Shown: positions 12,173-27,384 of the stretch, one piece after another
Layout: each line of letters opens with the position of its first letter
How positions within the stretch are numbered: position 1 is the first letter of the stretch
Source of the DNA: Bacteroidales bacterium
Lineage (GTDB): Bacteria > Bacteroidota > Bacteroidia > Bacteroidales > WCHB1-69
NCBI GenBank assembly: GCA_024400755.1
Contig: JAKSMG010000006.1
Coordinates: 17,361-81,360, forward strand
Length of the DNA stretch: 64,000 nt
Direction: 5' to 3'
Made by a program: the position numbers and the translations under genes
The notes under the pieces: generated by a model
Told to the model about the DNA's origin: nothing
The model's input: the letters and a program-made list of their open reading frames with translations, nothing else
The model's database searches: none

Positions 12173-12520
12173 ATGGAAGTGTCATTTAATGGTGACAAAG
12201 TTTTGTGCGTAAAGATAGACAACACCTTAAATAACAAAGATGTAAAGCATTTAGAAAGGCGTGAAAACATCTACGAATGTACAAGGAAATATTGGCATGT
12301 CAACAAAGAACGCGCCGAAAAAGCCGACTATGTGATGGGCATTGCCAATGGAATTGTACAAGTGGTTTACATTCCTCGAAAGTGGATACTAACAGCCAAC
12401 CCCAGATTTGCAGGACGCTATGAATTTGAAGGTGAAGAGGTGAAAGATTCTTCGTATATTGGAATGAATGTAGCGCAGCTTGTGAAAGGACAAAGCCCAA
12501 TTCGATATTTTAATATGTAA
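12173..12520 (+). CDS. hypothetical small protein (115 aa), first AT-rich gene of the island
   Basis: Intact ORF with its own promoter motif and a downstream terminator. I recognise no family for it. Confidence 0.5.
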   Translation: MEVSFNGDKVLCVKIDNTLNNKDVKHLERRENIYECTRKYWHVNKERAEKADYVMGIANGIVQVVYIPRKWILTANPRFAGRYEFEGEEVKDSSYIGMNVAQLVKGQSPIRYFNM

Positions 12521-12580
12521 ACAATTGCTGAATTGAGAAAAAGTTTTATTTTTGTACTTATTTGAATAATTGGACAAAAA

Positions 12581-12604
12581 AGCCAACAAGCTGCTGGCTT
12601 TTTA
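12581..12604 (+). terminator. intrinsic terminator after the 115-aa ORF
   Basis: AGCCA..CA / TG..TGGCT stem followed by TTTTT. Confidence 0.5.
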
Positions 12605-12740
12605 GAGATGCCTGAATCTTTTGGATTGGTGCCGTGAAAACCTCCAACTATATGTAAGCCATTTATTTAAATGGCAGTTGATGGCAAAAGTAAATATACC
12701 TGAGAACGGCACAACGGGGATGTAAAGATGGAAGAATGTA

Positions 12741-12773
12741 GTGGAGCGCATTTCTGCACTCCGCTTTTGTTTT
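12741..12773 (+). terminator. second hairpin plus T-run (possible terminator of a short untranslated unit)
   Basis: GTGGAGCGC-ATTTCT-GCACTCCGC followed by TTTTGTTTT. Confidence 0.4.
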
Positions 12774-12807
12774 ATCTTCCGTGCAATACTTTTTATGTGT
12801 GCACTAT

Positions 12808-12835
12808 AGTCCGTTGTTATTTTTTGCAACGGACT
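12808..12835 (+). promoter_or_regulatory. C-box-like palindromic operator candidate upstream of the controller gene
   Basis: Perfect 9-bp inverted repeat AGTCCGTTG-N10-CAACGGACT, 22 nt upstream of the ATG at 12858. The T-rich spacer resembles a -7 element. Confidence 0.4.
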
Positions 12836-12857
12836 GTAATTTTGTTAGTTTCCTTTT

Positions 12858-13094
12858 ATGAAGAGAAAAATGACTATGAATCTACTAAAAAATATTGGTA
12901 ATGAGATAATTAGCTTGCGAAAATCAAAAGGTCTATCGCAGGAAAAGTTGGCATTGAATGCCAACATTGACCGCCGCTATATGAGCGACATAGAAAACGG
13001 CCGCCGCAACATTTCCGTGGAGATGCTTTCCAAAATTGCGAAGGCCCTGGAAACTACTGGAAGTGAAATTTTGAAGGTGGCGGAAAAGGAATAG
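12858..13094 (+). CDS. XRE-family HTH protein, R-M controller (C-protein)-like
   Basis: 78 aa with an HTH_3 core: SLRKSKGLSQEKLALNANIDRRYMSDIENGRRNISVEMLSKIAKAL. It lies immediately upstream of an m5C methyltransferase. Confidence 0.75.
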   Translation: MKRKMTMNLLKNIGNEIISLRKSKGLSQEKLALNANIDRRYMSDIENGRRNISVEMLSKIAKALETTGSEILKVAEKE

Positions 13095-13103
13095 GAGGGG
13101 AGT

Positions 13104-14171
13104 ATGGTAAAGAGGAAATATACATCTTTAGACATTTTTGCAGGAGCTGGAGGCTTGAGCTTAGGAGCCTTACAAGCAGGCATAGATGTGTCAATCGCAG
13201 TTGAGATGGATAAATTCGCAGCTGAAACATATAAGTATAATCATCCCAATGCCCGAGTGCTATGCGATAACATTAGCAATATTTCAACAGAAACATTAAA
13301 GAAGAATTCTTTTTTCATTATTATGGGAGGACCGCCTTGCCAGGGATTTTCTTTGTCAAATACAAGAAGTCGTAATTTAGACAATCCTAAGAATTTCCTT
13401 TTTAAAGAGTTTGTTCGTTTCGTTAAAGATCTTCAGCCGAAATGGTTCCTTTTTGAGAATGTTGGCGGATTCCCTTTGTTTGAAAAAGGGCTGATTAGAG
13501 ATGAGGTTAAAAAGTCTTTTGAAGATCTCGGATATTCTGTCGCAGATTCTGTGTTATGGGCTTCTGATTATGGAGTTCCACAAAATAGAAATAGATTCTT
13601 CATGGTGGGGAACAATCAGGGAATAAATTTTGAATTCCCCCAACCATTTGATTATAAGGTTACTGTTGAAGAAGCTTTAGGAGACCTTCCTTTGCTTGAA
13701 AATGGCGATATGATAGAGCGTGCCGCCTATAGGGAAACGTTAAATCAAGCCAGCCATTATGCTAAACAAATGAGGATTGGCTCGGAAAACGCAACTCAAA
13801 ATTATGTTTCAAAAAATGCTGATTATGTGATTGAAAGGTACAAGTATATCCCTCAAGGTGGGAATTGGAGATCAATTCCGAATGAATTGATGGAAAACTA
13901 TGCAGACAAATCAAGATGCCATAGCGGAATATATCGTAGATTATGTGCTGACAAACCTTCAGTGGTAATCTCTAACTATCGAAAAAGCATGTTGATCCAT
14001 CCTTTTCAGAATAGAGGATTGTCTGTTCGAGAAGCTGCAAGACTTCAATCTTTCCCAGATACATTCATATTCAAAGGTTCGCTTATGCATATTCAACAAC
14101 AAATAGGTAATGCCGTCCCACCATTGTTGGCAAAAGCCGTCTTCGATAAAATTTTGAGCTATGAAGAATAA
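13104..14171 (+). CDS. DNA (cytosine-5)-methyltransferase (island MTase 1)
   Basis: Motifs I FAGAGG, IV GGPPCQGFS, VI ENV, VIII QNRNRFF and X GNAVPP. Confidence 0.92.
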   Translation: MVKRKYTSLDIFAGAGGLSLGALQAGIDVSIAVEMDKFAAETYKYNHPNARVLCDNISNISTETLKKNSFFIIMGGPPCQGFSLSNTRSRNLDNPKNFLFKEFVRFVKDLQPKWFLFENVGGFPLFEKGLIRDEVKKSFEDLGYSVADSVLWASDYGVPQNRNRFFMVGNNQGINFEFPQPFDYKVTVEEALGDLPLLENGDMIERAAYRETLNQASHYAKQMRIGSENATQNYVSKNADYVIERYKYIPQGGNWRSIPNELMENYADKSRCHSGIYRRLCADKPSVVISNYRKSMLIHPFQNRGLSVREAARLQSFPDTFIFKGSLMHIQQQIGNAVPPLLAKAVFDKILSYEE

Positions 14172-16308
14172 CAGTGAGAATATGCACTTCAAATTTGATG
14201 TCAGTACCTTCCGTCTTTTGGGACGGGAACTTATTACTGATAGGGTTACGGCATTATTCGAGTTGGTGAAGAACTGTTATGATGCCAATGCTGAGAATGT
14301 TGTCATCACATTTGAAAATGTCAATCCGATTTCAACAAATAGTAGAATCATCATTGAAGATGATGGAATAGGAATGTCTTACGAGGACATCCGCGACAAA
14401 TGGATGGTAATTGGGACAAGCAGCAAAAGAAGAAATAAAACTTCTCCATCGCCGTATAACAGAGCGGTTGTGGGTAAAAAAGGTGTTGGACGATTTGCTG
14501 TTGATAAATTAGGTTCCTGCTTAATTATGCGAACCAAAAAACTTGGTTCTAATGAGCTTCAATGTCTTGAAGTGGATTGGAGCAGGTATTCTGCAGAAGA
14601 AAGTAATCAGCTGAGTCTTGATTTTGAAGATTTTAATGAACAAAATCATCCTATGTTTACGGATATGGATAATCGGCATTGGATTGAGAACGGCATTGAG
14701 ACTCAGCATGGGACGATATTGGAAATATCTCAACTAAATGATATTTGGACTGAAAATGATATTCGTCGCGCTTACAAAGAATTGTCCAAATTAGTCAGAC
14801 CGACATTGGACATCAAATACCCTTTCAATATAAAAATAAGAGCATCTCAATATCAAGATTATCAAGATAAAAAAGTTGTCAGCAGTGCCCTGAATAAAGC
14901 TACATTGAACTATCATCTTTCTTTTCGGTATGATGAGATAACTAAAAAATATTTTCAAGAATACTTGAAAGAAGAGAAAGGGAACCTTGTCGTTAAAGAA
15001 AAAGAAGCAGAGATTTTCGGTCCCATAGCATTGTCTTTATATTACTATGATAAGAATGCTAAAAGAAATTTTGCAAAAGGAGATAGAATTGATGGGGTGA
15101 AAATATATCGAGATGGAATTATTGCAACCCCGTTCGCTGAATATAAAGAAGATAGAGATGAACAAAAAGATTTATTTGGGATAGATAAACGCCGTTGGTC
15201 TGGATTTTTTGAAAAACTAAGTACGAGAGATTTGCTTGGATGGATTGACATTTCTGAAGAATTGAATCCAAAAATCATAGACTCTACTAATCGGCAGGAT
15301 TTTGTTGATAATGGGGAATGGACGGCACTTAAGTCTTTTGTGATTAATCAAGTACATCAGATTGAGTTGCTATTGAAGCATCAAAAATCTCAGCAGAAAT
15401 CAGAAAATCATGAAAAACTGAAACAAGCAACAGAAGATGTTTCATCAATCAAAGCTAAAATTGAAAAGGTGAAAAAAAGTTCTGCTCTGCTCTCTCCTGA
15501 TGTTGAAAAGGATTTGGATGATATTACTTCAAAACTTGATACTATCAAATTGGCAGTTGACAGTTCTGCAGAGGATTTGACGCAAATGGAACAGAGCCAA
15601 AAGGCACAGGAAAATTTGTTTTTCAGTTTGGTGTCTCTGCAATCTTATGCAGCTCAAATGTCTCATATTTTCCGTACGTCAATTGGATACATAAAACGCT
15701 CTGCTGAATTTGTGGCCAAATGGGTGCCTATAGGAGAGAAACAGGATAAAGTGGTGAAACATGCCAAAATTGTTTTTGAAGACACCAATAATTTGTCTAA
15801 AGCAATGGACTTTATGTTGAGTTATGCTGAAGATGAATCGACTTTTGAATATTTTGACATCCGTCAGGCCGTTTACGAAATCTTTGATGAGCGTTATTCA
15901 TATTTGTTTGAAGAGGAATCCATTAAAGTTGAGCGAATTGTTGAAGATGATTTTGAATTGCTATACAATAAAAAAGCATTCCAGGATATGTTTGGAAATC
16001 TGATTGACAATTCTGCTAAAGCATTAAGAAATGTCAATGACAAAAGAATCAAGTGTAGCGCATCGCGTGAAAAAGATTCACTGGTAATAATGTTTTCAGA
16101 TAATGGCTGTGGCATTCCTAAGGAAAACTGGGATAAGATATTTGATGTGTTCTTTACAACAACCGCCGATTTTGGAGGTGCTGGGTTAGGACTATATATC
16201 ATAAAATCAAGATTGGAATCCATCAAAGGTTCTATTTCCTTGGAAGATAATGAATTCCTTCCCAACGGAGCCACATTTAAAATAACAATACCTTTAAAGC
16301 ATGAATAA
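14161..16308 (+). CDS. cytoplasmic histidine kinase with an extra N-terminal MORC/Hsp90-like GHKL ATPase domain
   Basis: N-terminal GHKL motifs are ELVKNCYDANA, IIEDDGIGMS and GKKGVGRFA. A coiled-coil-like middle region follows. The H-box is MSHIFRTSIGY (His502). The C-terminal CA domain has NLIDNSAKAL, SDNGCGI, FDVFFTT and GGAGLGLY. No TM segments are present. Confidence 0.75.
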   Translation: MKNNSENMHFKFDVSTFRLLGRELITDRVTALFELVKNCYDANAENVVITFENVNPISTNSRIIIEDDGIGMSYEDIRDKWMVIGTSSKRRNKTSPSPYNRAVVGKKGVGRFAVDKLGSCLIMRTKKLGSNELQCLEVDWSRYSAEESNQLSLDFEDFNEQNHPMFTDMDNRHWIENGIETQHGTILEISQLNDIWTENDIRRAYKELSKLVRPTLDIKYPFNIKIRASQYQDYQDKKVVSSALNKATLNYHLSFRYDEITKKYFQEYLKEEKGNLVVKEKEAEIFGPIALSLYYYDKNAKRNFAKGDRIDGVKIYRDGIIATPFAEYKEDRDEQKDLFGIDKRRWSGFFEKLSTRDLLGWIDISEELNPKIIDSTNRQDFVDNGEWTALKSFVINQVHQIELLLKHQKSQQKSENHEKLKQATEDVSSIKAKIEKVKKSSALLSPDVEKDLDDITSKLDTIKLAVDSSAEDLTQMEQSQKAQENLFFSLVSLQSYAAQMSHIFRTSIGYIKRSAEFVAKWVPIGEKQDKVVKHAKIVFEDTNNLSKAMDFMLSYAEDESTFEYFDIRQAVYEIFDERYSYLFEEESIKVERIVEDDFELLYNKKAFQDMFGNLIDNSAKALRNVNDKRIKCSASREKDSLVIMFSDNGCGIPKENWDKIFDVFFTTTADFGGAGLGLYIIKSRLESIKGSISLEDNEFLPNGATFKITIPLKHE

Positions 16309-16909
16309 TACAGAGAAAATGGATGTGGAAATCATCTATATTGATGATGTCTTAAGACCGGAAAAAAACGCCTTCCTTGACGATTTGGAAGGAACCATTA
16401 CGGATGCCAAACAGTTTGACAATCCATCGAAAGGACTTGATTACATCAAAGAAAATATCGATAAGAACATTATTGTTATTTTGGATTGGAGATTTGCTAA
16501 TTGTAGCCAGCAGGGAGCCGATATATTGAATTCAATATATGAAATGTCAGCTTTGGTCCCCGTTATTGTTTTTACAGGAGCCAATATTGATGTGACAGCT
16601 GCTTCAAATATGTTTAAAGGACATGCGTTCAGTTGTCTCTCGAAAGATGCGTCAACGCAAGAGATAACGGATGCAATTGAAGATGCATATCTGCGTATTC
16701 AAAACGACATCCGTTCTGTGATGAGCCGATGGATTCAAAACCTGCCATCTGACAAACGGGAAGCTCCGTATATGTCCTACAAGGACAAAACTTATTCCTT
16801 GAATGATCTTCTTGATTCTATTCGCAGACAGGATGAAATAGGCAAAGAATTGACACGGAATATTTTAGGCCTTGCTGCTGAAATGTTTACCAATAATTTG
16901 AAGAAATGA
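16301..16909 (+). CDS. receiver (REC) domain protein with an uncharacterised roughly 70-aa C-terminal tail
   Basis: Receiver landmarks are IYIDDV (acidic pair), VILDWRF (Asp62 acceptor), VFTGA (Thr) and LSKD (Lys). An 8-nt overlap with the kinase gene supports coupling. Confidence 0.65.
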   Translation: MNNTEKMDVEIIYIDDVLRPEKNAFLDDLEGTITDAKQFDNPSKGLDYIKENIDKNIIVILDWRFANCSQQGADILNSIYEMSALVPVIVFTGANIDVTAASNMFKGHAFSCLSKDASTQEITDAIEDAYLRIQNDIRSVMSRWIQNLPSDKREAPYMSYKDKTYSLNDLLDSIRRQDEIGKELTRNILGLAAEMFTNNLKK

Positions 16910-17553
16910 GACTGAATGCTGTGATTATTTGTGACGATTCAGAAAGCAATGATTTGAAACCTTTGTTTTCAAATCTGATGCGTGAAACATCCAATGCTCT
17001 CTGTGCATATAAAGATGCAAACAACATCGATTTGACACTTGAGAATCTTACACACGAGAGAGTTGATGTTCAGTCTCTTTCAGAGCGTCTTTCAAATGTA
17101 AATCAGAATGACTTTTTGTGCTATGTGTATTCGCATGGTGAGTGCGACAAGGTTCAGATGGATGGAGAAACCATTGTATCAACAACGACCAATCAATATT
17201 TGTTCAGCAATGCCTTGATTTATACATTTTCGTGCAGCAATGGTAGCGAGTTGGCAGATGTATTGATAGACAATGGTGCAAAATTATTTGTAGGATACAC
17301 GGATAACGCTTGGTTTACGATAGGTTGCGAAAATGAATATACCGAAAGAATTGCAATGACATTTGTAAATTCGTTTTTGAACGGTAACAATGCACAAAAA
17401 GCATTTGAAGATTTGAAAGAATCGTATAACAATGTGATATTTGACGATTCGTTGAAAGATCCGATATTGAAAGGAAATCTTCGCAAAAATCGAGACTGCT
17501 TGACACTCAAGGGTGATGGAAATTTAAGGATTTCAGATGTGAAACTGAATTAA
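16906..17553 (+). CDS. minimal caspase/gingipain-like (caspase-hemoglobinase fold) protein, putative protease effector
   Basis: Hydrophobic strand then His (LCYVYSHGE, His77) and hydrophobic strand then Cys (LIYTFSCSNG, Cys110), followed by LFVGYTD. This assignment rests on the motif pattern only. Confidence 0.45.
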   Translation: MRLNAVIICDDSESNDLKPLFSNLMRETSNALCAYKDANNIDLTLENLTHERVDVQSLSERLSNVNQNDFLCYVYSHGECDKVQMDGETIVSTTTNQYLFSNALIYTFSCSNGSELADVLIDNGAKLFVGYTDNAWFTIGCENEYTERIAMTFVNSFLNGNNAQKAFEDLKESYNNVIFDDSLKDPILKGNLRKNRDCLTLKGDGNLRISDVKLN

Positions 17554-17566
17554 TTGGAAGAATTTT

Positions 17567-18703
17567 ATGCCAAAGAAAAAACATACATTTATCGATTTGT
17601 TCGCAGGGTGCGGAGGCTTGAGTCTTGGCCTTGAGCAAGCTGGCTTTGCCCCTTGTTTTGTAAATGAAATTGTTGAAACTTTTTGTCAAACATACAAGGA
17701 AAATCATAATTTGTCAGAAGACAGGTATTACGTTGGAGACATTAATGAACTCAATCAAGAAATTGATAAATTTTCGCCATTATTTAAGGACGTCACTCTT
17801 GTATGTGGGGGGCCTCCCTGCCAAGGATTTTCAATGGCAAATCGTCAAAGAGTTATTGATGATCCAAGGAATCAACTGTATAAAGCGTTTCTTCAATTTC
17901 TTAGTAAAGTAAGACCTCAATTTTTCATCATGGAGAATGTAAAAGGCATGATGAATAAAATAGATGAAATAGAACAAAATTACAAAGATTTCTTGGGCGA
18001 TGAATATGCTTTTGCCTATGACGTGTTAAGAGCCCAAGATTTCGGCGTTCCTCAAAATAGAGAACGGTTGATTTTTATTGGGAACAGAGTTGGAGTTAAT
18101 CCAAAAATGATTTTTGAGGAAATCTACAAGCAAAAAAGAATATCCTTTGTGCTGCGCGATGCGTTGATTGGATTGCCTCATTTAGAATCAAAAACCGACA
18201 AAGGTCAGAAAGATATTGAAAATGATCTGTCTGGTTTTACAGTTCGAGATTTTGAGTATATACAAAATGATTTTTACCATTTTATTAATGGGGAAAAAGT
18301 ACTGACTAAATTGTTCAATCATAAGAATAGGTATAATAATCCGAGAGACATTGAAATATATAGGCGTTTGCCCCAAGGCGCAAATTCGCTTCATGAATCT
18401 ATCGTCGACATTATGCCGTACAAAAGCAGAAATGATATATTCAAAGATAAATATTTCAAACTTGATGAAAATCAAATTTGCAAAACTATAACTTCACACA
18501 TGAAGTACGATTGCAATATGTACATTCATCCATGGGAAGCTAGAGGATTAAGTCCTCGTGAGGCAGCTCGAATCCAGACATTTCCAGATGATTTTGTATT
18601 TACTGGAGCACAAAATCAGTGGTATGCGCAAATAGGAAATGCCGTGCCAGTAAAATTAGCAAAGGCAATAGGTGAAGGAATAATGAAATTTATAGAAAAA
18701 TGA
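17567..18703 (+). CDS. DNA (cytosine-5)-methyltransferase (island MTase 2)
   Basis: Motifs FAGCGG, GGPPCQGFS, ENV, QNRERLIF and GNAVPV. Confidence 0.92.
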   Translation: MPKKKHTFIDLFAGCGGLSLGLEQAGFAPCFVNEIVETFCQTYKENHNLSEDRYYVGDINELNQEIDKFSPLFKDVTLVCGGPPCQGFSMANRQRVIDDPRNQLYKAFLQFLSKVRPQFFIMENVKGMMNKIDEIEQNYKDFLGDEYAFAYDVLRAQDFGVPQNRERLIFIGNRVGVNPKMIFEEIYKQKRISFVLRDALIGLPHLESKTDKGQKDIENDLSGFTVRDFEYIQNDFYHFINGEKVLTKLFNHKNRYNNPRDIEIYRRLPQGANSLHESIVDIMPYKSRNDIFKDKYFKLDENQICKTITSHMKYDCNMYIHPWEARGLSPREAARIQTFPDDFVFTGAQNQWYAQIGNAVPVKLAKAIGEGIMKFIEK

Positions 18704-19779
18704 GACATTTAGAGTTATTTGCAGGTATAGGTGGTTTCAGAAGAGCAACGGATTTGCTCACTAAAGATAAAATAATGAATTTTAATTGCGTTGGATATTC
18801 GGAAATTGACAAAAATGCAATTTCTACCTATTGTGCTAATTTCAAGCCTAATAAGGATGAAATACCCATAGGAGATATTGTGACATTTACCGCACACCCG
18901 CAAAATATCCAATCGCTTCCCGATTTTGATTTGCTCACAGGAGGATTTCCGTGCCAGACATTTAGCATGATGGGGAAAATGGCTGGCTTTAATGAGGATA
19001 GAGGACAGATGTTTTTTCGAATCATGGATATTCTTAAATCGAAGCATCCACGTTATGTTTTACTTGAGAATGTCAAAAATCTTGTCAATCATGACAAAGG
19101 GAAAACTTTTTCAAGAATCAAACAAGAATTGGAAGATTTGGGTTATCATGTTTTTCCAAACATATATAATACAGCTGATTTCCATCTTCCTCAAACCCGT
19201 AATCGTCTTGTTGTGTTTGCAACAAAAGATGATTTAGATGAAAAATGGATGAAAAAAGCATTTACTCCAAGCTCTGTAAAAGAAACATTTGATAATGTTT
19301 ATAAAACATTAAGCACAAATCATTATTCTACAGTAATTGACGTTCTTTCTTCTAAGGCTGATAGTAAGTATTTCCTTTCTGAAAGGATCAAACCGACCAT
19401 ACTTGCCGATGGCTCAGCAAACTTCAAGTCAAAATCGGACATTAATATGAATATTGCTCGTCCTTTGACCGCTACAATGCACAAGATGCATCGTGCTTGC
19501 CAGGACAACTATTATAGTCAGGATTTCATTGAATCCCATGGCAAAATCAATCATGTGGAAGATTACACGAAGGAGCAATTGGCACAATTACCTATTAGAA
19601 AACTCACCCCGGAAGAAGCATTTATGTTGCAAGGTTTCCCAAAACAGTTTGCTACAAATGGTCGAAAAGCTGGAGTGTCAGATGGTGCGTTATACAAACA
19701 AGCAGGAAATGCTGTAAGCGTCAATGTTATTTATGCAATACTATATTTTTTGATTACTAATAATTTAATTGTTGAATAA
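18700..19779 (+). CDS. DNA (cytosine-5)-methyltransferase (island MTase 3)
   Basis: Motifs FAGIGG, GGFPCQTFS, ENV, QTRNRLVVF and GNAVSV. It overlaps MTase 2 by ATGA. Confidence 0.9.
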   Translation: MRHLELFAGIGGFRRATDLLTKDKIMNFNCVGYSEIDKNAISTYCANFKPNKDEIPIGDIVTFTAHPQNIQSLPDFDLLTGGFPCQTFSMMGKMAGFNEDRGQMFFRIMDILKSKHPRYVLLENVKNLVNHDKGKTFSRIKQELEDLGYHVFPNIYNTADFHLPQTRNRLVVFATKDDLDEKWMKKAFTPSSVKETFDNVYKTLSTNHYSTVIDVLSSKADSKYFLSERIKPTILADGSANFKSKSDINMNIARPLTATMHKMHRACQDNYYSQDFIESHGKINHVEDYTKEQLAQLPIRKLTPEEAFMLQGFPKQFATNGRKAGVSDGALYKQAGNAVSVNVIYAILYFLITNNLIVE

Positions 19780-19781
19780 TC

Positions 19782-20831
19782 ATGTTTTTTTTCTTCTTTA
19801 ATAACGAAAACAGGATTGGATTTAAGAAACTGACTGGAGCAGATTTGGGAATTTCTGAAACGAGCCATCAATCTCATATTGGTTTATACGAAGGTGTTCT
19901 GGAGTTTTTAGACGATTCTGATGTTGTAAGATCGGCTATGTTAATCTATGGAGACTACTGCAATGTGTTGGATTGTTCGTTCGACAGAATAAAAAATCCA
20001 GATGGTTCTTACAGAAGCCCTAAAATACGAATAGGCCAAGATTCAGACAATTCAGTTGTTTCAAAGATCAGAGGGTTTGCAAGAGAATATCCAAATGACG
20101 ATTGGTATCTGGCTTGGATGGGATTAGAGAGTAAAGAACTGGTGTTTTGGCTTGTCAAAAGTAGTACGACGGACTACGATACTGCAAGGAATTTTTTTCC
20201 GAAAGATAAAATTGTATTACAGGAAGATTCACCGACCTATAATGCTGCAAAAGATTATCTTTTGAATCGAATAAACTTTCTAAGCGTTGATGTCCAAAAG
20301 GATATTGAGGTCAAAAGTTTGATTGGTGATTCGAGGAGAAAATATAAGGTAAGAGACCTCGAAAATGCAGAACGGCAATTCAAGCTGACAGGGAAAGAAG
20401 GTGAAGAGTTGGTTGCACAATTTTTAGAACGAGAGAAATTGGCGAAACGAGTAGAGTCCTTCGTGTGGGAAAACAAATCTTATGAATCTGGATTGCCGTA
20501 TGATTTTATTGTCAATGGAAAAATTTTTGTTGATGTAAAATCTACAAGATTTGATTTTGAACAATTTTTGTTTTATAGCAATCAAGAGATAGATTTTGCC
20601 GCTGCCCAAAACAATTTGACCTACGCTGTATATAGAGTGTTTGATATGAATATGGAGCAAAGAAAATTGTCCATTTGTAATAACTGTCAGCCGTATATGA
20701 AATCTATACAACAGCCGATTGTTGATTTAAAAAATGCCGTAAGAACACAACATGCTCTTATGCAAAGCATAAAATTGGGATTAAAACCATCTATTTGTTT
20801 CAATGAAATAAGCAACCCTATTTTATTATAA
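19782..20831 (+). CDS. putative restriction endonuclease subunit with a C-terminal DUF3883-like PD-(D/E)xK domain
   Basis: The C-terminal pattern GKEGEELVAQFL...LPYDFIV...IFVDVKST...FLFYSNQEIDFA resembles the DUF3883/NO VEIN-C nuclease fold. The N-terminal FKKLTGADLG... region may bind DNA. Confidence 0.5.
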   Translation: MFFFFFNNENRIGFKKLTGADLGISETSHQSHIGLYEGVLEFLDDSDVVRSAMLIYGDYCNVLDCSFDRIKNPDGSYRSPKIRIGQDSDNSVVSKIRGFAREYPNDDWYLAWMGLESKELVFWLVKSSTTDYDTARNFFPKDKIVLQEDSPTYNAAKDYLLNRINFLSVDVQKDIEVKSLIGDSRRKYKVRDLENAERQFKLTGKEGEELVAQFLEREKLAKRVESFVWENKSYESGLPYDFIVNGKIFVDVKSTRFDFEQFLFYSNQEIDFAAAQNNLTYAVYRVFDMNMEQRKLSICNNCQPYMKSIQQPIVDLKNAVRTQHALMQSIKLGLKPSICFNEISNPILL

Positions 20832-20834
20832 ACT

Positions 20835-22820
20835 ATGGAAGAAATAGTCAAACACATAAACGATACCAATGCTAGTTTTCGCACCCCGAATGCTGGTGAT
20901 GCAAAAAATACGGATTTATTTTTGGATAACGAACAATATGACTTATTTAAAGATGAAGGGGAACAAATTACCGTCCGTTATAACAAAGAAAATCTTTCAA
21001 AAGCCATTCTTTTCATAGCGTCCATACTTCCAAGAAAATATGATAATTCTGGAATGCATAAATCTATCACTTATTCTTCGGAATTTGTATATGACCAACT
21101 GGCTTTTCTGGATTATTTCTTCAAAGAAAGTGGTGTTTCTGTAGATAAGAAAACTCAAAAATGGAATGTTCGTAAGAATGTGCCAAAGAAAAATGGAGAA
21201 ATAGATAATCGATTCTATTTTAATGGGCTTCTGGATGATGTTGAATATGTTAATGTCAAAAAAGAGAGGGTTTCCTCGAAATTCACTATACGCAATTATC
21301 TTGCTGGTGGATATTCTGACCTCCACATAAAAAGGGCTAATGATGGCATCTTTGATGTATGGGTGACAAATGTCCAACAACCATATTTTGATGATAAAGA
21401 AGAATTAGAAATTGAGGATAAGTCGTCACATAATAATCTCCCTCTCCAAACCATCTTCTACGGTGCCCCTGGCACAGGGAAATCACACAAGGTGAAGGAA
21501 GTGACAGAGACCCTGCCAAAGAGCGATGTTTTCCGCACTACGTTTCATCCGGATTCTGATTATTCAACTTTTGTGGGTTGTTACAAGCCCAAGATGGTGA
21601 AAGCGCCTATTAGAGATGGCAGCGGACACGAAATAACCTCGGCATGTGAAGATGAGAAGAAGCGCATTGCATACGAGTATGAACCGCAGGCATTCCTGAA
21701 AGCCTACGTCCGTGCCTACGAAACCAACGATCCTGTTTTCCTTGTCATCGAGGAAATCAACCGCGGTAACTGCGCCCAGATTTTCGGCGATATGTTCCAA
21801 TTGCTGGACAGAAATGAAAACGGCGAATCGGATTACGCCATCAAACCCGAAACGGCCATCCAGGAATTTCTCAACGAAAAGCTGGAAGATTGTGACATTG
21901 CGGATGAAACCATCAAATCGGGAGAAGAGATGCGTCTGCCTGCAAACCTCCATATCTGGGCTACGATGAACACCTCCGACCAAAGCCTGTTCCCGATAGA
22001 CTCCGCCTTCAAGAGAAGATGGGATTGGAAATATATGCCAATCGACACACGAAAAGAATCATGGGGCATCAAGGTAAACGGGACTGAGTACAGTTGGAGC
22101 AGTTTCTTGGAGAAAATCAACGAGGAGATAGGTTCTATTACTAATAGTGAAGACAAAAAACTCGGCTTTTATTTCTGTAAAGCAGAAAATGGCATCATCA
22201 GTGCTGAGAAGTTTGTGAGCAAAGTGCTGTTCTATATCTATAATGATGTGTTCAAGGATTACGGCTTTGAAAGCAGCAAGAACAAAGATCTTTTCAAAGA
22301 TGGTGACAACAAGCTGGCTTTCGGGACATTCTATTCTGATAATGGGAATATTCGAGAAGAAAAGGTTGATCTGTTTTTGAAGAATCTTGGAGTAGAAGAT
22401 GCCAAAAGAAACAACATGATTTCCAATGATGAAGAAGATGAGGACGGGAATAGCTCAACCACCGAAAGCTCAAGTCGTAACTACGATAAATTCTCCATCA
22501 ATGGTTCTGGTAGATATGCAAAAAATAATCTTGCAGCAGAATGTGTGAAGAAGTATATCGAACTAAACTCCGATATCACTGTTGAAGAAGTTCTTCATAA
22601 TTGGAGTGATTTCAAGAACTTAGTACCTCATTTCATGGAATCAAAAGACGAGTTTGATGCTAGGACAGATAACAGCAAACGTTCTCATGAAATTCCGTGT
22701 AATGGATCAGTATTGTACGTGGCACACAATGGCTATGGTAGCAATGGCAAGGCTCAAATATTGATGGACAGCGTGAATCAAAAAGGCTGGGGATTGACAA
22801 TCGAAAGACATAATGCATAA
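20835..22820 (+). CDS. McrB-like AAA+ (GTPase-type) restriction subunit
   Basis: Walker A FYGAPGTGKSH. The McrB signature FLVIEEINRGNCAQIFGDMFQLLDR and HIWATMNTSDQSLFPIDSAFKRRW are both present. N- and C-terminal domains are uncharacterised. Confidence 0.85.
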   Translation: MEEIVKHINDTNASFRTPNAGDAKNTDLFLDNEQYDLFKDEGEQITVRYNKENLSKAILFIASILPRKYDNSGMHKSITYSSEFVYDQLAFLDYFFKESGVSVDKKTQKWNVRKNVPKKNGEIDNRFYFNGLLDDVEYVNVKKERVSSKFTIRNYLAGGYSDLHIKRANDGIFDVWVTNVQQPYFDDKEELEIEDKSSHNNLPLQTIFYGAPGTGKSHKVKEVTETLPKSDVFRTTFHPDSDYSTFVGCYKPKMVKAPIRDGSGHEITSACEDEKKRIAYEYEPQAFLKAYVRAYETNDPVFLVIEEINRGNCAQIFGDMFQLLDRNENGESDYAIKPETAIQEFLNEKLEDCDIADETIKSGEEMRLPANLHIWATMNTSDQSLFPIDSAFKRRWDWKYMPIDTRKESWGIKVNGTEYSWSSFLEKINEEIGSITNSEDKKLGFYFCKAENGIISAEKFVSKVLFYIYNDVFKDYGFESSKNKDLFKDGDNKLAFGTFYSDNGNIREEKVDLFLKNLGVEDAKRNNMISNDEEDEDGNSSTTESSSRNYDKFSINGSGRYAKNNLAAECVKKYIELNSDITVEEVLHNWSDFKNLVPHFMESKDEFDARTDNSKRSHEIPCNGSVLYVAHNGYGSNGKAQILMDSVNQKGWGLTIERHNA

Positions 22821-22842
22821 GAATTAGCATTGAAGAATAAAT

Positions 22843-24423
22843 ATGGCATTTCACATCAACATAGAAGACCTGTTGAACGGCAAGGCGGTGGAAAACAATC
22901 GCCTTGACTATAAAGAAGGATGGAATCCCGATGCCATCTATCGTACCATCTGTGCCTTTGCCAATGATTTTGAAGATACCGGCGGTGGCTACATTGTGGT
23001 GGGCGTGAAGGAAGAAAACGGTCGTGCCGTGCGTCCGGTGATGGGTGTTAATCCGCAGCAGATTGAGACAATTGAGAAGGAAATGGTGGGTTACAACAAC
23101 CTCATACAGCCATACTATCAGCCGCGGTTGTTTATTGAGGAAGCCGACGGCAAAAACATCCTCATCATCAAGGTTATTGCTGGCGAACGCCGCCCTTACA
23201 AAGTGCCTGATTTTATTACAGCCAAGCAGAAAAACTGGAATTACTATATCCGCTATAATAGCAGCTGCATCGTTCCCAAGAACGAGTACGAGGAAGAGTT
23301 GCGAGGGCTTGCCAACCGCGTGCCGTTCGATGATCGTGGCAATGCTGACATCAAGATAACCGATATTTCAACCTCTATTTTACGTGACCATCTCGTGTCG
23401 GTGAAGAGTGCCCTTGCTAACGAGGACATGAGCGGCGAGCGTCTGTGGACAATACTTGATCAAATGGACTTAACGGAACAGACACCCGACGGACCTGTCA
23501 TCCGCAATGTGGCAGCCATGATGTTCTCTGAGCATCCCGACAAGTTCTTCAAGTACTCTCAAGTGGAGATTGTCATCTTTCCTGAAGGACGTGAGCACAA
23601 TCCAAACAACATGATTGAGTTGCCCGTCATCAAAGGACCTGTGCCCTACATGATACGCGACACAATGAATGCCCTGAAGGTGAACGTCATCCGCAAGAGC
23701 ATCCGCAAACAGAAGTTCGACGAGCATTCCATACCCACCTATAATTACCCTTATCAGGCATTAGAGGAGGCGGTGGTCAACTCGCTCTATCATCGCGATT
23801 ATCAAGATCGCGAACCCGTAGAGATAACCATGGAACCAAACAAGATCAGCATTCTTAGTTTTTCCGGCCCTAACCACACCATTAGCATGGATGCCATCCA
23901 TGAGGCCAAACTTCTCCGTTCGCGCAGATATCGTAATCGCCGCTTGGGAGAGTTCCTTAAGGAACTTGATTTGACGGAGGGTCGAAGTACGGGCATTCCT
24001 ACCATTCAAGAAGAACTTGCCAACAATGGTTCACCAGCCGCCACCATAGAAACCGATGACGCTCGCTCGTATTTCATTATTGACATCCCGTGCCATAAAG
24101 ACTTTGTGGGTGATGTTTTGGTGCTGAATGAAGGAGAAAATGCCATAAAGGATGTTGCGAAAAAATTAACTGACAGACAAATGGTTATCTATGAAATCAT
24201 AGCACATGGCACATTGGATGAAACCATAAATGTCCCTGTAAATGTCCCTGTAAATGTCCCTGTAAATGTCCCTGTAAATATTTCTATAAATGTAACAACC
24301 CTTGCATCGTGGCTTATGGTGACGGAGAAGACCATTAAACGCGACCTTTCTGCTATGCAAGCTGCGGGTGTTATCAAGCGAGTAGGTAGCGATAAGACAG
24401 GTTATTGGGAAGTAATTCAATAA
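22843..24423 (+). CDS. AlbA_2 (Schlafen-like) / HATPase_c_4 / wHTH protein (RecG-like putative DNA-binding family)
   Basis: N-terminal RLDYKEGWNP...ICAFANDFEDTGGGYIVVGV. Central VNSLYHRDYQ...RNRRLGEFLKELDLTEGRSTGIPTI. A C-terminal winged-helix domain follows. Confidence 0.75.
   Translation: MAFHINIEDLLNGKAVENNRLDYKEGWNPDAIYRTICAFANDFEDTGGGYIVVGVKEENGRAVRPVMGVNPQQIETIEKEMVGYNNLIQPYYQPRLFIEEADGKNILIIKVIAGERRPYKVPDFITAKQKNWNYYIRYNSSCIVPKNEYEEELRGLANRVPFDDRGNADIKITDISTSILRDHLVSVKSALANEDMSGERLWTILDQMDLTEQTPDGPVIRNVAAMMFSEHPDKFFKYSQVEIVIFPEGREHNPNNMIELPVIKGPVPYMIRDTMNALKVNVIRKSIRKQKFDEHSIPTYNYPYQALEEAVVNSLYHRDYQDREPVEITMEPNKISILSFSGPNHTISMDAIHEAKLLRSRRYRNRRLGEFLKELDLTEGRSTGIPTIQEELANNGSPAATIETDDARSYFIIDIPCHKDFVGDVLVLNEGENAIKDVAKKLTDRQMVIYEIIAHGTLDETINVPVNVPVNVPVNVPVNISINVTTLASWLMVTEKTIKRDLSAMQAAGVIKRVGSDKTGYWEVIQ
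24227..24295 (+). repeat. in-frame 12-bp tandem repeat (TAAATGTCCCTG x4 perfect plus 2 degenerate)
   Basis: Read directly from the sequence. It encodes (VNVP)4 followed by NISINV inside the C-terminal wHTH region of the AlbA_2 protein. Confidence 0.9.
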
Positions 24424-24433
24424 AAAGACAACT

Positions 24434-26674
24434 ATGCGCCTCATCATAGAAGAACACCGGTATCCCGTTGACAAGGTCAAAGATGTCCTTGACGGCATCT
24501 CCACATTGCGTGATGTGGATGGGCTGGTCAGCGTCAATTATGTGGGCTATTACTACAATCCCACATTGAAGGATTGTGTGTTTATTCTTCCCAAAGTGTT
24601 GCTTGATGAGAGTGAAAAGGTGTTCGGGCATTGCTCTCCGGAAGATATCATTGATCTTGAAAATCAAGATTGCCTTACACAAGAAGAACACGACTTCATA
24701 TATGAATTGTCCGTTTGGATTTATCGCGCTATCGTGGTTTATCAGGATAGCAAGCCGCAGAACAATATCGTACTGAAACAGAATGTCCAGCAAATGGCCA
24801 AAGGCCGGTTGCGTCAGTGCAATACGTTTTTGGACATCCTTTTGGCTATGCTGAAGTTCAACCGCGAGAACCAGGATTTCTTCTTCTTTATTTTGCGGAA
24901 TATCCATTCCGGATACAACAAAATCAATTGGACACGGACCATCAGCCACACATCAGCCATTGTACAGGACAACTCTCCGGTGTATCTGAATCCTGTCAAC
25001 AAGAAACGACAAATCAACTTTGATGAAGAATTGCTGATTATCTTTTTTTCCATCCTGAACTACATCAATGAACAATATGGCTTTCCTGTGCAGATTAATG
25101 TGAATTTTCCTTTGATCAAGGGTGAAATGTTTGAGCATTATCGCAAGGAAATGGGCAAGGCAAAGCTGATGCAAATCAAATACAAGTATTTCTCCGATAA
25201 AGCTCTTTATCTATGGGAACTTTGCTATGCTTTCTTTGACCAGAGCAAGAAGATCAATGTGGAGACGGACGACAAAGAATATCTGTTGGTAAAGAATTTC
25301 AACATTGTATTTGAAGCCATTATTGACGAATTGATAGGAGCGCCTGAATCCGAGACACCAAGTGGATTGAAAGACCAGGGAGATGGAAAACGCGTTGACC
25401 ACATTTACCAGTACAAAGACTTGATTCACAACGAAGAGGACAAGCCCGTTTATTATATCGGCGATTCCAAATATTATAAGCGGGGTGCTCCTATTGGAGA
25501 AAATTCCGTTTATAAACAATTCACGTACGCCCGCAATGTGATTCAGTGGAATCTGGATCTCTTCAATGATTCGCAAGTAACGGAACTCAACGGACATATC
25601 AAGTTGCGTGACGATGTTACCGAAGGTTACAATGTGATTCCTAATTTCTTTATTTCTGCCCAGCAGAATACATTGGGACGCTCTTTCGATATCCAACAGA
25701 CGACGAATGAACAGAAATACTACCAGTCCAAGCAATTCGATAACCGATTGTTTGACAGGGATACTTTCCTTATTGCGCATTACGATGTGAATTTCTTATT
25801 TGTGGTCGCTCTGTACGGACGGAACAATAAAGGTGAAAAGTCAGCTTGGAAAGAGAAAGTGCGTGGAATGTTCCGCCGCGAAATACAGGCTATGTTGGAG
25901 CAGAACTTTAACTTCTACGCCATTACCGCCAAAGAGGGTGTCAATGCGGCCGCCTATATAGATGATCATTTTCAGGAATTATTGGGAAAGATTTTCACTC
26001 CGTATCCGGACAGGGAAGGACAGAAGTATTTTTCTGTTGCATTGGATAACCGAGAAAATTTTTCTGAAGCTAACGAGACCTTATTGAATCAACTAAAGGA
26101 AAACTTTTATGTTGAGCAATGTGAACATATATCTGATGATCCTAAAGCATTGCTTCCAGAAGTCGCACCATTTGTTCAACAGATGGCCGTACCTTCCAAT
26201 TTCCTTACATATCATTATCTGGAAAAATATGCCGATAAATTGATTCTCATTGGTTGCTATCACAACCAGGCACATTTGAATTGGATTTTAGGCAACAACG
26301 ACAAAGGAACGCTTATCTATAATGTCCGCTTGGATAAGAGTCGCCCAGGTGCACAGAAAATAACACAGTTGTCAAACAATGTCGCTTGTTTTGTCATTCT
26401 TTACGAACAAGCTCATGAGCACGAAAACAAATACCGTGTATTCCACGTTCACCATCATGCCACGATGACGGAAGAAAGAATGCGCAAGGCGCGTTATCCA
26501 GAGCCACAAGGCAAGTACTTCTGTTATGTTTTCGACGAGGAGGTAACATTGGGAAATCTTGACATAGCAGCATTGATTGCCAATGAGCAAAGAACAAATA
26601 CGGATTTTATTCAGGGTTCCCCAATTTTCAAGACTGGCAAAGAATTGATTAAATATAGAAAACACAACACTTGA
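24434..26674 (+). CDS. McrC / LlaJI-R2-like restriction endonuclease subunit with a long C-terminal extension
   Basis: McrC-like N-terminus (VNYVGYYYNP...CVFILPKVLL). PD-(D/E)xK core RVDHIY ... YYIGDSKYYK. It is paired in the operon with a McrB-like gene and two m5C MTases. Confidence 0.65.
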   Translation: MRLIIEEHRYPVDKVKDVLDGISTLRDVDGLVSVNYVGYYYNPTLKDCVFILPKVLLDESEKVFGHCSPEDIIDLENQDCLTQEEHDFIYELSVWIYRAIVVYQDSKPQNNIVLKQNVQQMAKGRLRQCNTFLDILLAMLKFNRENQDFFFFILRNIHSGYNKINWTRTISHTSAIVQDNSPVYLNPVNKKRQINFDEELLIIFFSILNYINEQYGFPVQINVNFPLIKGEMFEHYRKEMGKAKLMQIKYKYFSDKALYLWELCYAFFDQSKKINVETDDKEYLLVKNFNIVFEAIIDELIGAPESETPSGLKDQGDGKRVDHIYQYKDLIHNEEDKPVYYIGDSKYYKRGAPIGENSVYKQFTYARNVIQWNLDLFNDSQVTELNGHIKLRDDVTEGYNVIPNFFISAQQNTLGRSFDIQQTTNEQKYYQSKQFDNRLFDRDTFLIAHYDVNFLFVVALYGRNNKGEKSAWKEKVRGMFRREIQAMLEQNFNFYAITAKEGVNAAAYIDDHFQELLGKIFTPYPDREGQKYFSVALDNRENFSEANETLLNQLKENFYVEQCEHISDDPKALLPEVAPFVQQMAVPSNFLTYHYLEKYADKLILIGCYHNQAHLNWILGNNDKGTLIYNVRLDKSRPGAQKITQLSNNVACFVILYEQAHEHENKYRVFHVHHHATMTEERMRKARYPEPQGKYFCYVFDEEVTLGNLDIAALIANEQRTNTDFIQGSPIFKTGKELIKYRKHNT

Positions 26675-26769
26675 TAACAAGCTTGTTGTCAAATTCAGCA
26701 GAGGATAATGTCTGTTTGGAAGCCTTATTAACACTATAAACAACTCAAAACATAATCCATACCCCTTCT

Positions 26770-26994
26770 ATGTCTCACACCCTAACCCTCACGTGCCCGC
26801 ATTGCGGACATACGTTTGAAAGAACCTACGGCGTGAATGTCGTGGGGCAGGCAACCCTCTACTGCAACAAATGCGGAAAATCCCATTTCGTTGACCTTAG
26901 TCTGGGATGGGAACCGCTGCCCGACTGCGAATGCGGCGGATCCTTCGATGCCGACGCTAAAGGCCGCTGCCCGAAATGCGATAATATTTTGTGA
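26770..26994 (+). CDS. small zinc-ribbon protein (four CxxC-type pairs)
   Basis: CPHC, CNKC, CEC and CPKC spacing in 74 aa. The gene is GC-rich relative to the island. Confidence 0.5.
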   Translation: MSHTLTLTCPHCGHTFERTYGVNVVGQATLYCNKCGKSHFVDLSLGWEPLPDCECGGSFDADAKGRCPKCDNIL

Positions 26995-27046
26995 CGATTT
27001 CTACACCGAGCGCTGGGCCACCAGCCACGCAGAACTCAAGAACTGA
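26993..27046 (+). pseudogene. 17-codon remnant or frameshifted tail homologous to the C-terminus of the 28403-28819 gene
   Basis: The shifted frame reads DDFYTERWATSHAELKN*, compared with YYDFYTERWANRHAGLK* at 28766-28819. Confidence 0.4.
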
Positions 27047-27195
27047 CATGGACTGGATATTTCAGCCGAGAGGCGCTCTTTTTTGTTGTGTTCGTAAGCA
27101 ATTTATTGCTTTTTTTGAGTAAATTTGCGACCTTGAAAATTTCGTTTCAAGATATACTTTTTACTTGAAATTAAGAAACTTATCAATTATTAACC

Positions 27196-27330
27196 ATGAC
27201 GAAAAAACAAGAAATCCAACTTTTTGAAGAGAAAAAAGTTCGCACCGTTTGGGATTCTGAGACCGAACAATGGTACTTATGTGTGGTAGATATCGTATCG
27301 GTTTTGACGAAGCAGCAAGATGTTCTATAA
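27196..27330 (+). pseudogene. truncated 44-codon ORF (N-terminal fragment of a larger conserved protein)
   Basis: MTKKQEIQLFEEKKVRTVWDSETEQWYLCVVDIVSVLTKQQDVL*. A TAAATTTG promoter motif lies at about 27122, and the ORF ends abruptly before the RhuM gene. Confidence 0.35.
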
Positions 27331-27384
27331 GACCAGTCTAGCGCATGTTTTTAGAAGAATATCAATAAAAACAAAATTGTGATT

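Follow-up and report, generated by a model that had tools for sequence, protein, structure and literature searches.

Does a tightly packed run of eleven co-directional genes form one defence operon, and what would such a unit do? The question is raised by a 64,000-nt stretch of DNA from a Bacteroidales bacterium (assembly GCA_024400755.1, contig JAKSMG010000006.1), hereafter the window, which holds at 12858-26674 eleven intact open reading frames (ORFs), all on the + strand (window ORF list; Table 1). A first-pass annotation had described this array as several defence modules fused into one transcription unit under a single switch formed by a control (C) protein and its C-box. We find that the C gene is followed by two separable cassettes. 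Module A (13104-17553) encodes the 5-methylcytosine (m5C) DNA methyltransferase (MTase) M1, a protein that joins a GHKL ATPase to a histidine kinase (GHKL-HK), a receiver protein (RR) and orf215, a predicted caspase-fold protease. Module B (17567-26674) encodes the MTases M2 and M3, a NOV_C-domain protein, a McrB-like GTPase, an AlbA_2/Schlafen protein with a helix-turn-helix (HTH) domain and a LlaJI-R2/McrC-like endonuclease subunit. We consider it rather probable that the array consists of two defence cassettes based on DNA methylation, arranged head to tail after a C gene that is specific to this lineage, expressed mostly as one polycistronic unit and working by the mechanism proposed below.

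The layout of the array is consistent with an operon. The junction distances given by the first-pass annotation are exact (+9, -11, -8, -4, +13, -4, +2, +3, +22 and +10 nt), and four of the junctions are stop/start overlaps (ATGAAGAATAA, ATGAATAA and ATGA twice). Start codons are ambiguous for two genes, an alternative gene caller placing C at 12876 and RR at 16319; the latter start turns the -8 overlap into a +10 gap, and all junctions still measure 22 nt or less. None of the eleven ORFs looks like a pseudogene, because each has full-length homologs of matching size. A terminator scan of 10000-29900, with the expectation taken from shuffled sequence, returned 10 terminator-like sites where 17.0 +/- 4.5 were expected, fewer than in the shuffles. 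The earlier failure to find an internal terminator was repeated, the sole + strand candidate in the array being a weak hairpin with a poor T tail (14209-14228) that sits within the GHKL-HK coding sequence. Operon-tight spacing is normal in this genome, with an equally tight run at 39015-46264; since it is common among the operons of this genome, the packing is a sign of an operon and not an anomaly. The first T-tract hairpins 3' of the array are weak and lie at ~27068-27115, beyond a 74-aa zinc-ribbon ORF, which may therefore be a twelfth gene of the unit.

Table 1. Features of the array and its immediate surroundings, in window coordinates.
Feature	Position	Strand	Evidence
vsr, very-short-patch repair endonuclease	11510-12043	+	PF03852 E=1e-29; TIGR00632 148 bits
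Palindrome AGTCCGTTG-N10-CAACGGACT, C-box-like	hairpin 12805-12838		13 pairs, -19.7 kcal/mol, z = -5.2
TAATTTTG, Bacteroides -7 type box	12837-12844	+	fits TAnnTTTG; 14 nt 5' of C ATG
C, 78-aa Xre-type HTH, control protein-like	12858-13094	+	PF01381 E=2e-15; PADLOC Control_protein
M1, m5C DNA methyltransferase	13104-14171	+	PF00145 E=1e-69
GHKL-HK, 715 aa	14161-16308	+	HATPase_c_3 aa 30-152; HATPase_c aa 605-713
RR, receiver protein	16301-16909	+	PF00072, 30.9 bits; ~60-aa conserved C-terminal extension
orf215, 215 aa, predicted clan CD-like cysteine protease	16906-17553	+	AlphaFold2 + Foldseek + invariant His-Gly/Cys
M2, first m5C methyltransferase of module B	17567-18703	+	PF00145 E=2e-70
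M3, second m5C methyltransferase of module B	18700-19779	+	PF00145 E=1.5e-77; ATGA overlap with M2
NOV_C-domain protein, restriction-endonuclease-like	19782-20831	+	PF13020 E=5e-9, aa 209-293
McrB-like AAA+ GTPase (LlaJI R1-like)	20835-22820	+	PF07728 AAA_5; PADLOC REase_II E=4e-46
AlbA_2/Schlafen + HATPase_c_4 + winged-HTH protein	22843-24423	+	PF04326, PF13749, HTH
LlaJI-R2/McrC-like endonuclease subunit, 746 aa	24434-26674	+	PF09563 RE_LlaJI E=2.4e-4
Zinc-ribbon ORF, 74 aa	26770-26994	+	weak zinc-ribbon matches; before first T-tract hairpins

That the two modules are separate entities follows from their occurrence in relatives. A GHKL-HK profile gave 208 confirmed genome loci, of which the best 80 were examined; loci of relatives carry L-numbers, the closest genome clade being L002-L014 from rumen and gut Bacteroidales. 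The 80 loci belong mostly to Bacteroidota, at identities from 69% down to 39%, and GHKL-HK has matches in more than 1,883 protein clusters. Wherever the contig reaches, all 80 loci have the genes for the MTase, GHKL-HK and RR in this order and on one strand, an m5C MTase lies directly upstream of GHKL-HK in every locus extending far enough, and orf215 is present in nearly all. The type of MTase is uncoupled from the kinase clade, M1-like enzymes of 64-68% identity accompanying kinases that are 67% or 42% identical. In most loci module A stands alone, followed by unrelated sequence or by vsr; the core of module B, four genes, is likewise found by itself on the Pedobacter plasmid NZ_MN657144 (L082), where MTase, MTase, AAA ATPase and McrC-like gene follow one another in the gene order of LlaJI. 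Together with a junction that is kept despite swaps on its sides, these loci bear out the view that separable defence modules have been joined. The joined state was overstated as unusual, for module A followed by McrB/McrC-like genes is common in rumen and gut Bacteroidales: a McrB-like gene comes directly after module A, with 0, 1 or 2 MTases between, in 9 of the 11 informative loci of the closest clade. Going by these loci, the composite operon is a recurrent architecture in this clade and not a one-off. McrB/McrC-like genes also follow the cassette in the distant loci L042, L062, L072 and L078 (~30% identical). In L023, L059 and L070 the cassette lies on short contigs whose bins are assigned to a Thermoplasmatota archaeon, a Spirochaetes bacterium and a Lachnospira sp.; these cassettes represent either horizontal transfer outside Bacteroidota or mis-binning.

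The junction between the modules is a site of exchange. The A-to-B spacer measures 10-13 nt in L002, L003, L010 and L013 and 59-235 nt elsewhere, with 200 nt or more in some relatives; other relatives keep a junction of 11-14 nt while the content on either side is swapped. Several of the longer spacers contain codons from the start of an m5C MTase gene (MAKKKYT.IDLFAG.GG), namely L012 13401-13637, L008 13387-13596, L011 13384-13507, L006 8257-8334 and L083 2951-3022, which are, as judged from what they encode, remnants of deleted module-B MTases. Loci with such remnants retain the McrB/McrC-like genes, although McrB of L006 is broken up into two ORFs.

The comparison of sub-blocks among close relatives that the first-pass annotation had proposed showed modules and guest genes that are shared with some loci and missing or replaced in others (L085-L090, L083/L084, L003). 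Between 12870 and 17607, from codon 5 of C to 40 nt into M2, L089 and the window are 97.5% identical; beyond this breakpoint L089 encodes a different 365-aa MTase and a McrB-like protein with a different N-terminal domain, whose gene matches the window at 21435-21482 only. L090 is 94% identical over 12798-17601. In L085-L088 identity to the window is ~80%, beginning 23 nt into M1 (13127) and reaching to the end of M3; L085 and L086 extend upstream of M1. L083 and L084 encode the same orf215 protein as L085, followed by a 24-codon M2 remnant and then by another McrB, a YhcG/DUF1016 nuclease and another McrC. M2 is 77-89% identical in L003, L085, L087 and L088. In L003, identity to the window is 77% for M2, 60% for M3 and 65% for McrB residues 1-271, against 42% for the GTPase part and 47% for McrC.

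Base composition divides the array at the same place. GC profiling confirmed the compositional mosaic seen earlier in spot counts, with 35-38% GC and a GC content at third codon positions (GC3) of 0.29-0.37 from M1 to NOV_C and 40-47% GC in the distal genes (McrB GTPase part 43%, Schlafen gene 47%, McrC 41%; for comparison, vsr 52%); GC3 of other window genes is 0.39-0.61. The sharpest GC break of the array falls not at a gene boundary but inside the McrB-like gene, at ~21435, between its N-terminal domain (20835-21434) and its GTPase part (21435-22820). Residues 1-200 have a GC3 of 0.275, like M2, M3 and NOV_C, and the GTPase part one of 0.487. This break coincides with the point where homology to L089 resumes and with the identity split in L003, and M2, M3 and the McrB N-terminal domain share low GC and co-varying identity. 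Because the GC3 split, the identity split and the resumption of homology at 21435 agree, the MTases and the McrB N-terminal domain are best described as a specificity cassette that moves as a block on a McrB-GTPase/McrC chassis, which takes up guest genes in its turn. More generally, the breakpoints indicate that recombination swaps modules at the boundaries of genes and domains while their tight spacing is kept. The McrC-like gene has a second GC3 break near 25500 (0.53 for residues 1-355, 0.29 for residues 356-746), and several relatives align only to the first 540-610 residues of the protein, which suggests that its C-terminal domain is variable.

Mobility genes are absent, as noted before: neither the array nor its immediate flanks contain an integrase, a transposase or a tRNA, the nearest tRNA is no closer than 53.5 kb, and an Rfam scan of the window and of L085 found two distant tRNAs and nothing else. 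A tyrosine recombinase 3.7 kb downstream (30389-31303, - strand) was considered as an island integrase and rejected, since it is the housekeeping protein XerD (TIGR02225, 357 bits against a cutoff of 330).

The array's most novel element is orf215, the caspase-fold fourth gene of the widespread cassette. Its product has no match in Pfam (even at E<=10), PADLOC or NCBIfam, and comparison with PDB sequences gave chance-level matches at most. Its AlphaFold2 (AF2) model is confident, with a predicted local distance difference test score (pLDDT) of 91.8 and a predicted template modelling score (pTM) of 0.90. The best Foldseek match is SAVED-CHAT (8tl0; E=2.6e-6, template modelling (TM) score 0.65), followed by caspases 3, 7 and 8 and gingipain R; the Foldseek probability is 1.00, and there are 61 PDB matches at E<=1e-3, of which those listed are all caspases, CHAT proteins or gingipain. 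Residues H77, G78, C110 and G130 are invariant in 79 of 79 homologs, with H77-G78 at strand 77-79 and C110 just past strand 103-108, the positions expected for clan CD. Given the invariant His-Gly and Cys, the confident model and the matches to caspases, CHAT and gingipain, we predict that orf215 is a caspase-fold, clan-CD-type cysteine protease. One homolog carries a precomputed PF01364 match. The orf215 profile retrieved 478 representatives at 50% clustering, almost all of them stand-alone proteins of 200-217 aa, and its top 150 matches are stand-alone ~200-217-aa proteins or fragments. A metagenome-assembled genome (MAG) at NCBI has an annotated protein identical to orf215, and an identical 14.3-kb contig occurs in Logan.

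The other products of module A have the make-up of a cytoplasmic phosphorelay. GHKL-HK begins with a GHKL ATPase of the MutL/MORC type and ends with a histidine kinase made up of dimerization/phosphotransfer (DHp) and catalytic (CA) domains; the region between the two is conserved. Its N-terminus matches NF050001 (BbrUII/HgiDII restriction endonuclease) over aa 10-209 and, in PDB, gives marginal matches to PMS1 and MORC2 and nothing stronger; aa 495-711 match histidine kinases in PDB. Invariant residues are found in both ATP-binding folds, in the Bergerat motifs of the N-terminus (E34, N38, D67xGxG and G105xxGxG) and in the N, G1 and G2 boxes, and H502 of the H-box is likewise invariant. The AF2 model of this protein is poor (pLDDT 54, from a 10-sequence alignment), with the middle region unresolved, and was not used for a fold search; residues 211-406 are poorly modelled and have no profile match, which bears on an S5-fold transducer in this region. 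RR has no known output domain. Its D16 and D62 are invariant in 80 of 80 homologs, and W144, R175 and G181 are conserved.

Module B is, by gene order and domain content, a probable LlaJI-type restriction-modification (R-M) system with NOV_C and AlbA_2/Schlafen-HTH guests. M2 and M3 bring the MTases of the array to three, all matching PF00145 (E 1e-69 to 1e-77), in agreement with the initial count. The McrB-like protein also matches NF008457 (McrB) and the PDB McrB structures 6ut3 (E=9e-12) and 6hz4, and the McrC-like gene always lies 3' of the McrB-like gene, with a guest gene possible between them. RE_LlaJI is matched by 6 of 11 McrC-like orthologs (E<0.01, best E=5e-6), and the orthologs share an invariant D317..D322-H..I-G-D344-S-K346-Y-Y signature of the PD-(D/E)xK type; no match to the McrC-like protein was found in NCBIfam. 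The guests occupy variable slots. NOV_C occurs in module B of this lineage only; L003 and L013, without it, have an MTase followed directly by McrB, and in L022 a 30% identical NOV_C homolog comes directly after orf215. The slot between McrB and McrC holds an AlbA_2/Schlafen homolog in L009 (60%) and L004 (24%), the YhcG/DUF1016 nuclease in L083/L084, and is empty in L003 and L012. The earlier count of at least three effector types was right in number, with a caspase-like protease, a NOV_C nuclease-like protein and a McrB/McrC-like pair.

The C gene precedes both modules. Its product matches the PADLOC Control_protein model PDLC03665 (E=4.8e-18, covering 9-71 of 77 positions). Upstream of it, a 9-bp inverted repeat with a 10-nt spacer (arms AGTCCGTTG and CAACGGACT, 12808-12835) overlaps the promoter-like TAATTTTG region; TAnnTTTG is the -7 promoter consensus of Bacteroides. 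The left-arm motif TATAGTCCGTTGT is conserved 5' of the homologous C genes of L089 and L090, the corresponding motif 5' of the C homolog of L035 is TTAGTCCGTTGT, and TAGTCCGTTGT is common to the window, L089, L090 and L035. The C homolog of L036 is preceded by a similar palindrome, of 9 bp with 9 nt between the arms. The operator motif TATAGTCCGT resembles the classical C-box of the GACTnnnAGTC type. By its symmetry and position the palindrome fits an operator for an autoregulating HTH dimer, and it may also stop read-through from orf115, the 115-aa ORF between vsr and C. Its bearing on the cassette is limited by distribution. C is present in L001, L089 and L090, and L035 and L036 have homologs of it; such a gene lies directly 5' of the cassette in the window, L089, L090, L035 and L036 and in no other locus. 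Neither the ~80%-identical L085/L086 nor any of the 13 loci of the closest clade (L002-L014) has C, and the small HTH protein that precedes the cassette in L012 is unrelated. Since C is missing from 80%-identical relatives and from the closest clade, its distribution marks the C switch as an accessory, lineage-specific addition and not a defining part of the cassette. Relatives without C carry promoter-like boxes of their own before M1. In L085 such a box (TATATTTG) lies ~255 nt upstream of M1, and the leader of ~250 nt (within 1826-2089) has no Rfam match.

The first-pass proposal also takes the whole array to be one C-controlled transcript. A sigma-70 promoter scan (64 sites against 53 +/- 8 expected) is uninformative, being the wrong model for Bacteroidota, and was replaced by a scan for TAnnTTTG. 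Only two further + strand matches occur in the array (15987 and 20917), neither near a gene start. A single transcript is plausible, because the junctions measure 22 nt or less with four overlaps, there is no convincing internal terminator, a box stands before C and near no internal gene start, and the operator motif is conserved 5' of C homologs.

From the gene content, the domains, the conserved catalytic residues, the modularity and the breakpoints described above, we infer how the cassettes could work; the biochemical steps, the signal and co-transcription are all given here as proposals. M1 would mark self DNA with 5-methylcytosine. The soluble GHKL-HK would detect the state of DNA through its MutL/MORC-type ATPase and middle region, unmethylated incoming DNA being the likely signal, would autophosphorylate at H502 and would pass the phosphate to D62 of RR. 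Phosphorylated RR would then switch on the caspase-like orf215 (catalytic H77/C110), and cleavage of cellular or phage proteins by the latter could produce a response of the abortive-infection or arrest type. In module B, an asymmetric site would be methylated on both strands by M2 and M3, the McrB-like protein would read this site in its unmethylated form through its N-terminal domain, and the LlaJI-R2/McrC-like subunit would cut DNA, with NOV_C and AlbA_2/Schlafen-HTH as accessory genes in variable slots. Vsr would repair T:G mismatches arising from the three m5C MTases, and the C protein, by binding the promoter-overlapping palindrome, would set the timing and level of expression.

Several points weigh against this scheme or parts of it. 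The host is an uncultured Bacteroidales MAG. Module A contains no recognisable nuclease or DNA-binding domain, and DNA sensing by GHKL-HK is a guess from its MutL/MORC-type, HgiDII/BbrUII-like N-terminus. No fusion of a receiver (REC) domain to the protease occurs among the top 150 orf215-profile matches (1.84 billion representatives searched). The McrC-like protein of the window scores 20.8 bits against RE_LlaJI, whose cutoff is 23.6, and has no sequence match in PDB, alone or as an 11-sequence profile. With regard to regulation, a C gene directly upstream of an MTase is atypical for classical C-controlled R-M systems, the palindrome could be a mere upstream terminator, a scan with a six-base consensus cannot exclude internal promoters, and the 235-nt A-to-B spacer of L012 holds a promoter-like box (TATTTTTG) 60 nt before McrB.

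This last observation belongs to the alternative that survives best, which we nevertheless regard as rather unlikely: the array would be an ordinary defence island in which module A, module B and perhaps the guests are independent and use promoters of their own inside the preceding coding sequence, so that C controls at most itself and module A. Both modules do exist alone elsewhere, the closest relatives without C have their own boxes before M1, the parts of the array differ in composition, and LlaJI of Lactococcus has its own promoter and is regulated by one of its methylases. Against it stands the passage from orf215 to M2. The gap is 13 nt in the window and 10-13 nt in L002, L003, L010 and L013, no + strand TAnnTTTG lies within 1.5 kb upstream of M2, the terminator scan shows no terminator-like hairpin on the 3' side of orf215, and tight junctions are retained even after downstream modules have been swapped.

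Two further readings concern function. In one, modules A and B form a single integrated multi-effector system whose phosphorelay and protease control the McrB/McrC-like nuclease or license its action (proteolytic activation and a shared read-out of methylation are examples), so that adjacency is functional and not island clustering. The frequent placement of the McrB/McrC-like pair directly after module A in the closest clade speaks for it, and so do the four distant loci with ~30% identical McrB/McrC, which suggest repeated independent joining; the retention of McrB/McrC after loss of the module-B MTases would be survivable only if M1 or module A substitutes for them or the nuclease is held in check. 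Most loci with room downstream nevertheless have module A without a McrB/McrC-like gene, a plasmid carries the four core genes of module B by themselves, the split McrB of L006 fits decay after MTase loss, and defence genes cluster in islands anyway, which leaves this reading improbable. We think it very improbable that module A is an epigenetic signalling circuit and not an immune one, in which two-component signalling in the cytoplasm would sense the methylation or damage state of DNA and adjust physiology via regulated proteolysis, for although module A has no nuclease, its receiver has no toxic output domain and related HEF_HK/Response_reg_2 pairs were described from genes induced in plant infection and stress (PMC8011034), its distribution across Bacteroidota is patchy and horizontally transferred with MTases swapped between kinase clades, its neighbours are vsr, RhuM/PDC-S05, McrBC-like and other defence genes, and proteases of the caspase fold have an established effector role in defence linked to CRISPR and CBASS, the best structural match of orf215 being SAVED-CHAT.

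The locus shows the assembly of a defence operon at nucleotide resolution, with recombination at borders between genes and even at a border between domains, MTases that travel with the DNA-reading N-terminal domain of a McrB-like GTPase, and operon-tight spacing that is preserved. Two-component-like systems associated with R-M genes had a computational description only, with no proposed output until now; the caspase-fold protease is a candidate output for the Bacteroidota family of these systems. If correct, a path from phosphorelay to protease would link R-M-style self-marking to caspase-like effectors, and module A would be a testable system abundant in gut and rumen Bacteroidales. A bolder proposal, which we put forward as possible and tentative, is that module A represents a distinct and widespread form of methylation-gated immunity in Bacteroidota, with a minimal caspase-like protease, in place of a nuclease, activated by a phosphorelay and functionally coupled to exchangeable LlaJI/McrBC cassettes in one operon. 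Non-self DNA would be sensed by the MutL/MORC-type ATPase fused to the kinase, and the recurrent tight joining would reflect the coupling of an abortive, proteolytic arm to one that cuts DNA.

Outside the eleven genes, vsr lies upstream of the array in the window and usually downstream of the cassette in relatives. It is followed by orf115 (12173-12520), which has a partial PADLOC PD-T4-3 match (E=2e-11, residues 24-90) and no Pfam match, and by a weak terminator-like hairpin at ~12577-12603. On the 3' side, the zinc-ribbon ORF has four CxxC-type pairs and 54% GC, and L083 has a partial homolog of it downstream of its McrC-like gene. A RhuM-family gene follows at 27379-28377 (PF13310 E=2e-108; PADLOC candidate PDC-S05 E=5e-158), with a promoter-like box (TAAATTTG) upstream at 27120; RhuM homologs adjoin the cassette in L003, L008, L018, L039, L051 and L059. 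The 138-aa ORF at 28403-28819 (56% GC, GC3 0.72) has no family match, and an antisense ORF of about the same length overlaps it, so that its status as a gene is uncertain.

Comparison with known systems places the parts of the array as follows. The classical C-regulated type II R-M systems (PvuII, Esp1396I, AhdI) share with the window a small Xre-HTH protein with a PADLOC control-protein match and an operator palindrome that lies ~20 nt 5' of a near-leaderless start, in overlap with the promoter. In contrast to these systems, C of the window precedes the MTase M1 (9-nt gap) and a multi-gene array, not a restriction gene, and no separate MTase promoter is evident, so the pattern of C and restriction gene with an independent MTase does not apply. 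The operator of the window is a single 9-N10-9 palindrome and not two tandem boxes, and C is dispensable for the cassette in most lineages.

Module B agrees with LlaJI of Lactococcus lactis in the order M-M-R1-R2, in its two PF00145 MTases, and in an AAA_5/McrB-type GTPase, and its second subunit is a candidate member of the RE_LlaJI family. In the window this order is kept but interrupted by NOV_C between M3 and R1 and by AlbA_2/Schlafen-HTH between R1 and R2; L003, L013 and the plasmid L082 have the uninterrupted form. The R2-like protein of the window (746 aa) is twice as long and weakly similar, and module B has no separate upstream region, starting 13 nt after module A. Identity of module B with a type IV McrBC system was rejected, for two m5C MTases lie directly upstream of the McrB-like gene and co-vary with its N-terminal domain. 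Identity with MADS was rejected as well, MADS being an eight-gene system with an N6-MTase and a specificity subunit.

Module A comes close to the HEF_HK/Response_reg_2 two-component-like elements, computationally predicted near C5-MTases, Vsr, R-M genes and paraMORC ATPases (Bellieny-Rabelo et al, 2021; PMC8011034). Both have a soluble kinase of HATPase_c_3, DHp (with the conserved His) and HATPase_c, an adjacent receiver-type protein without a known output domain, a C5-MTase immediately upstream with Vsr commonly nearby, and a patchy distribution that includes Bacteroidetes. Membership of the kinase and receiver in the corresponding families was nevertheless rejected. PF19191 (HEF_HK) gave no match for the window protein at E<=10 or for five divergent homologs at E<=1, in a library copy in which the presence of this model is unconfirmed; PF19192 (Response_reg_2) matched neither RR of the window nor five divergent homologs, all of which match the canonical PF00072 instead. 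PMC8011034 mentions no protease, whereas module A has a caspase-fold fourth gene in nearly all 80 loci. With MORC/paraMORC GHKL ATPases (PMC2292703) the kinase shares an N-terminal GHKL domain with intact ATP-binding motifs and an R-M context; its fusion architecture is not described in that paper, in the NTP-dependent conflict-system paper or in the Aravind-group conflict-system papers.

Like SAVED-CHAT and Craspase/Csx29, orf215 has a predicted caspase fold with the His-Gly/Cys dyad at the expected positions. It differs from them in being a minimal, stand-alone domain of 215 aa that carries no sensor such as SAVED or TPR; its sequence is not significantly similar to known families (Pfam C14, CHAT, C25), and it is linked to a phosphorelay and a DNA methyltransferase instead of cyclic-nucleotide or CRISPR signalling. 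Finally, Detocs is a two-component system experimentally established as a direct anti-phage system (Rousset et al; 10.1101/2023.01.24.525353). A cytoplasmic histidine kinase-receiver phosphorelay that serves as an immune switch for a cell-harming modular effector would be common to both, the role of module A being the one proposed here. PADLOC gave no match of module A to Detocs or any such system. Detocs consists of the TPR sensor kinase DtcA, the buffer receiver DtcB and the receiver-effector fusion DtcC, whose effector is usually PNP, and has no methyltransferase, whereas module A combines a GHKL ATPase sensor, one receiver and a separate caspase-like effector with an obligatory m5C MTase.

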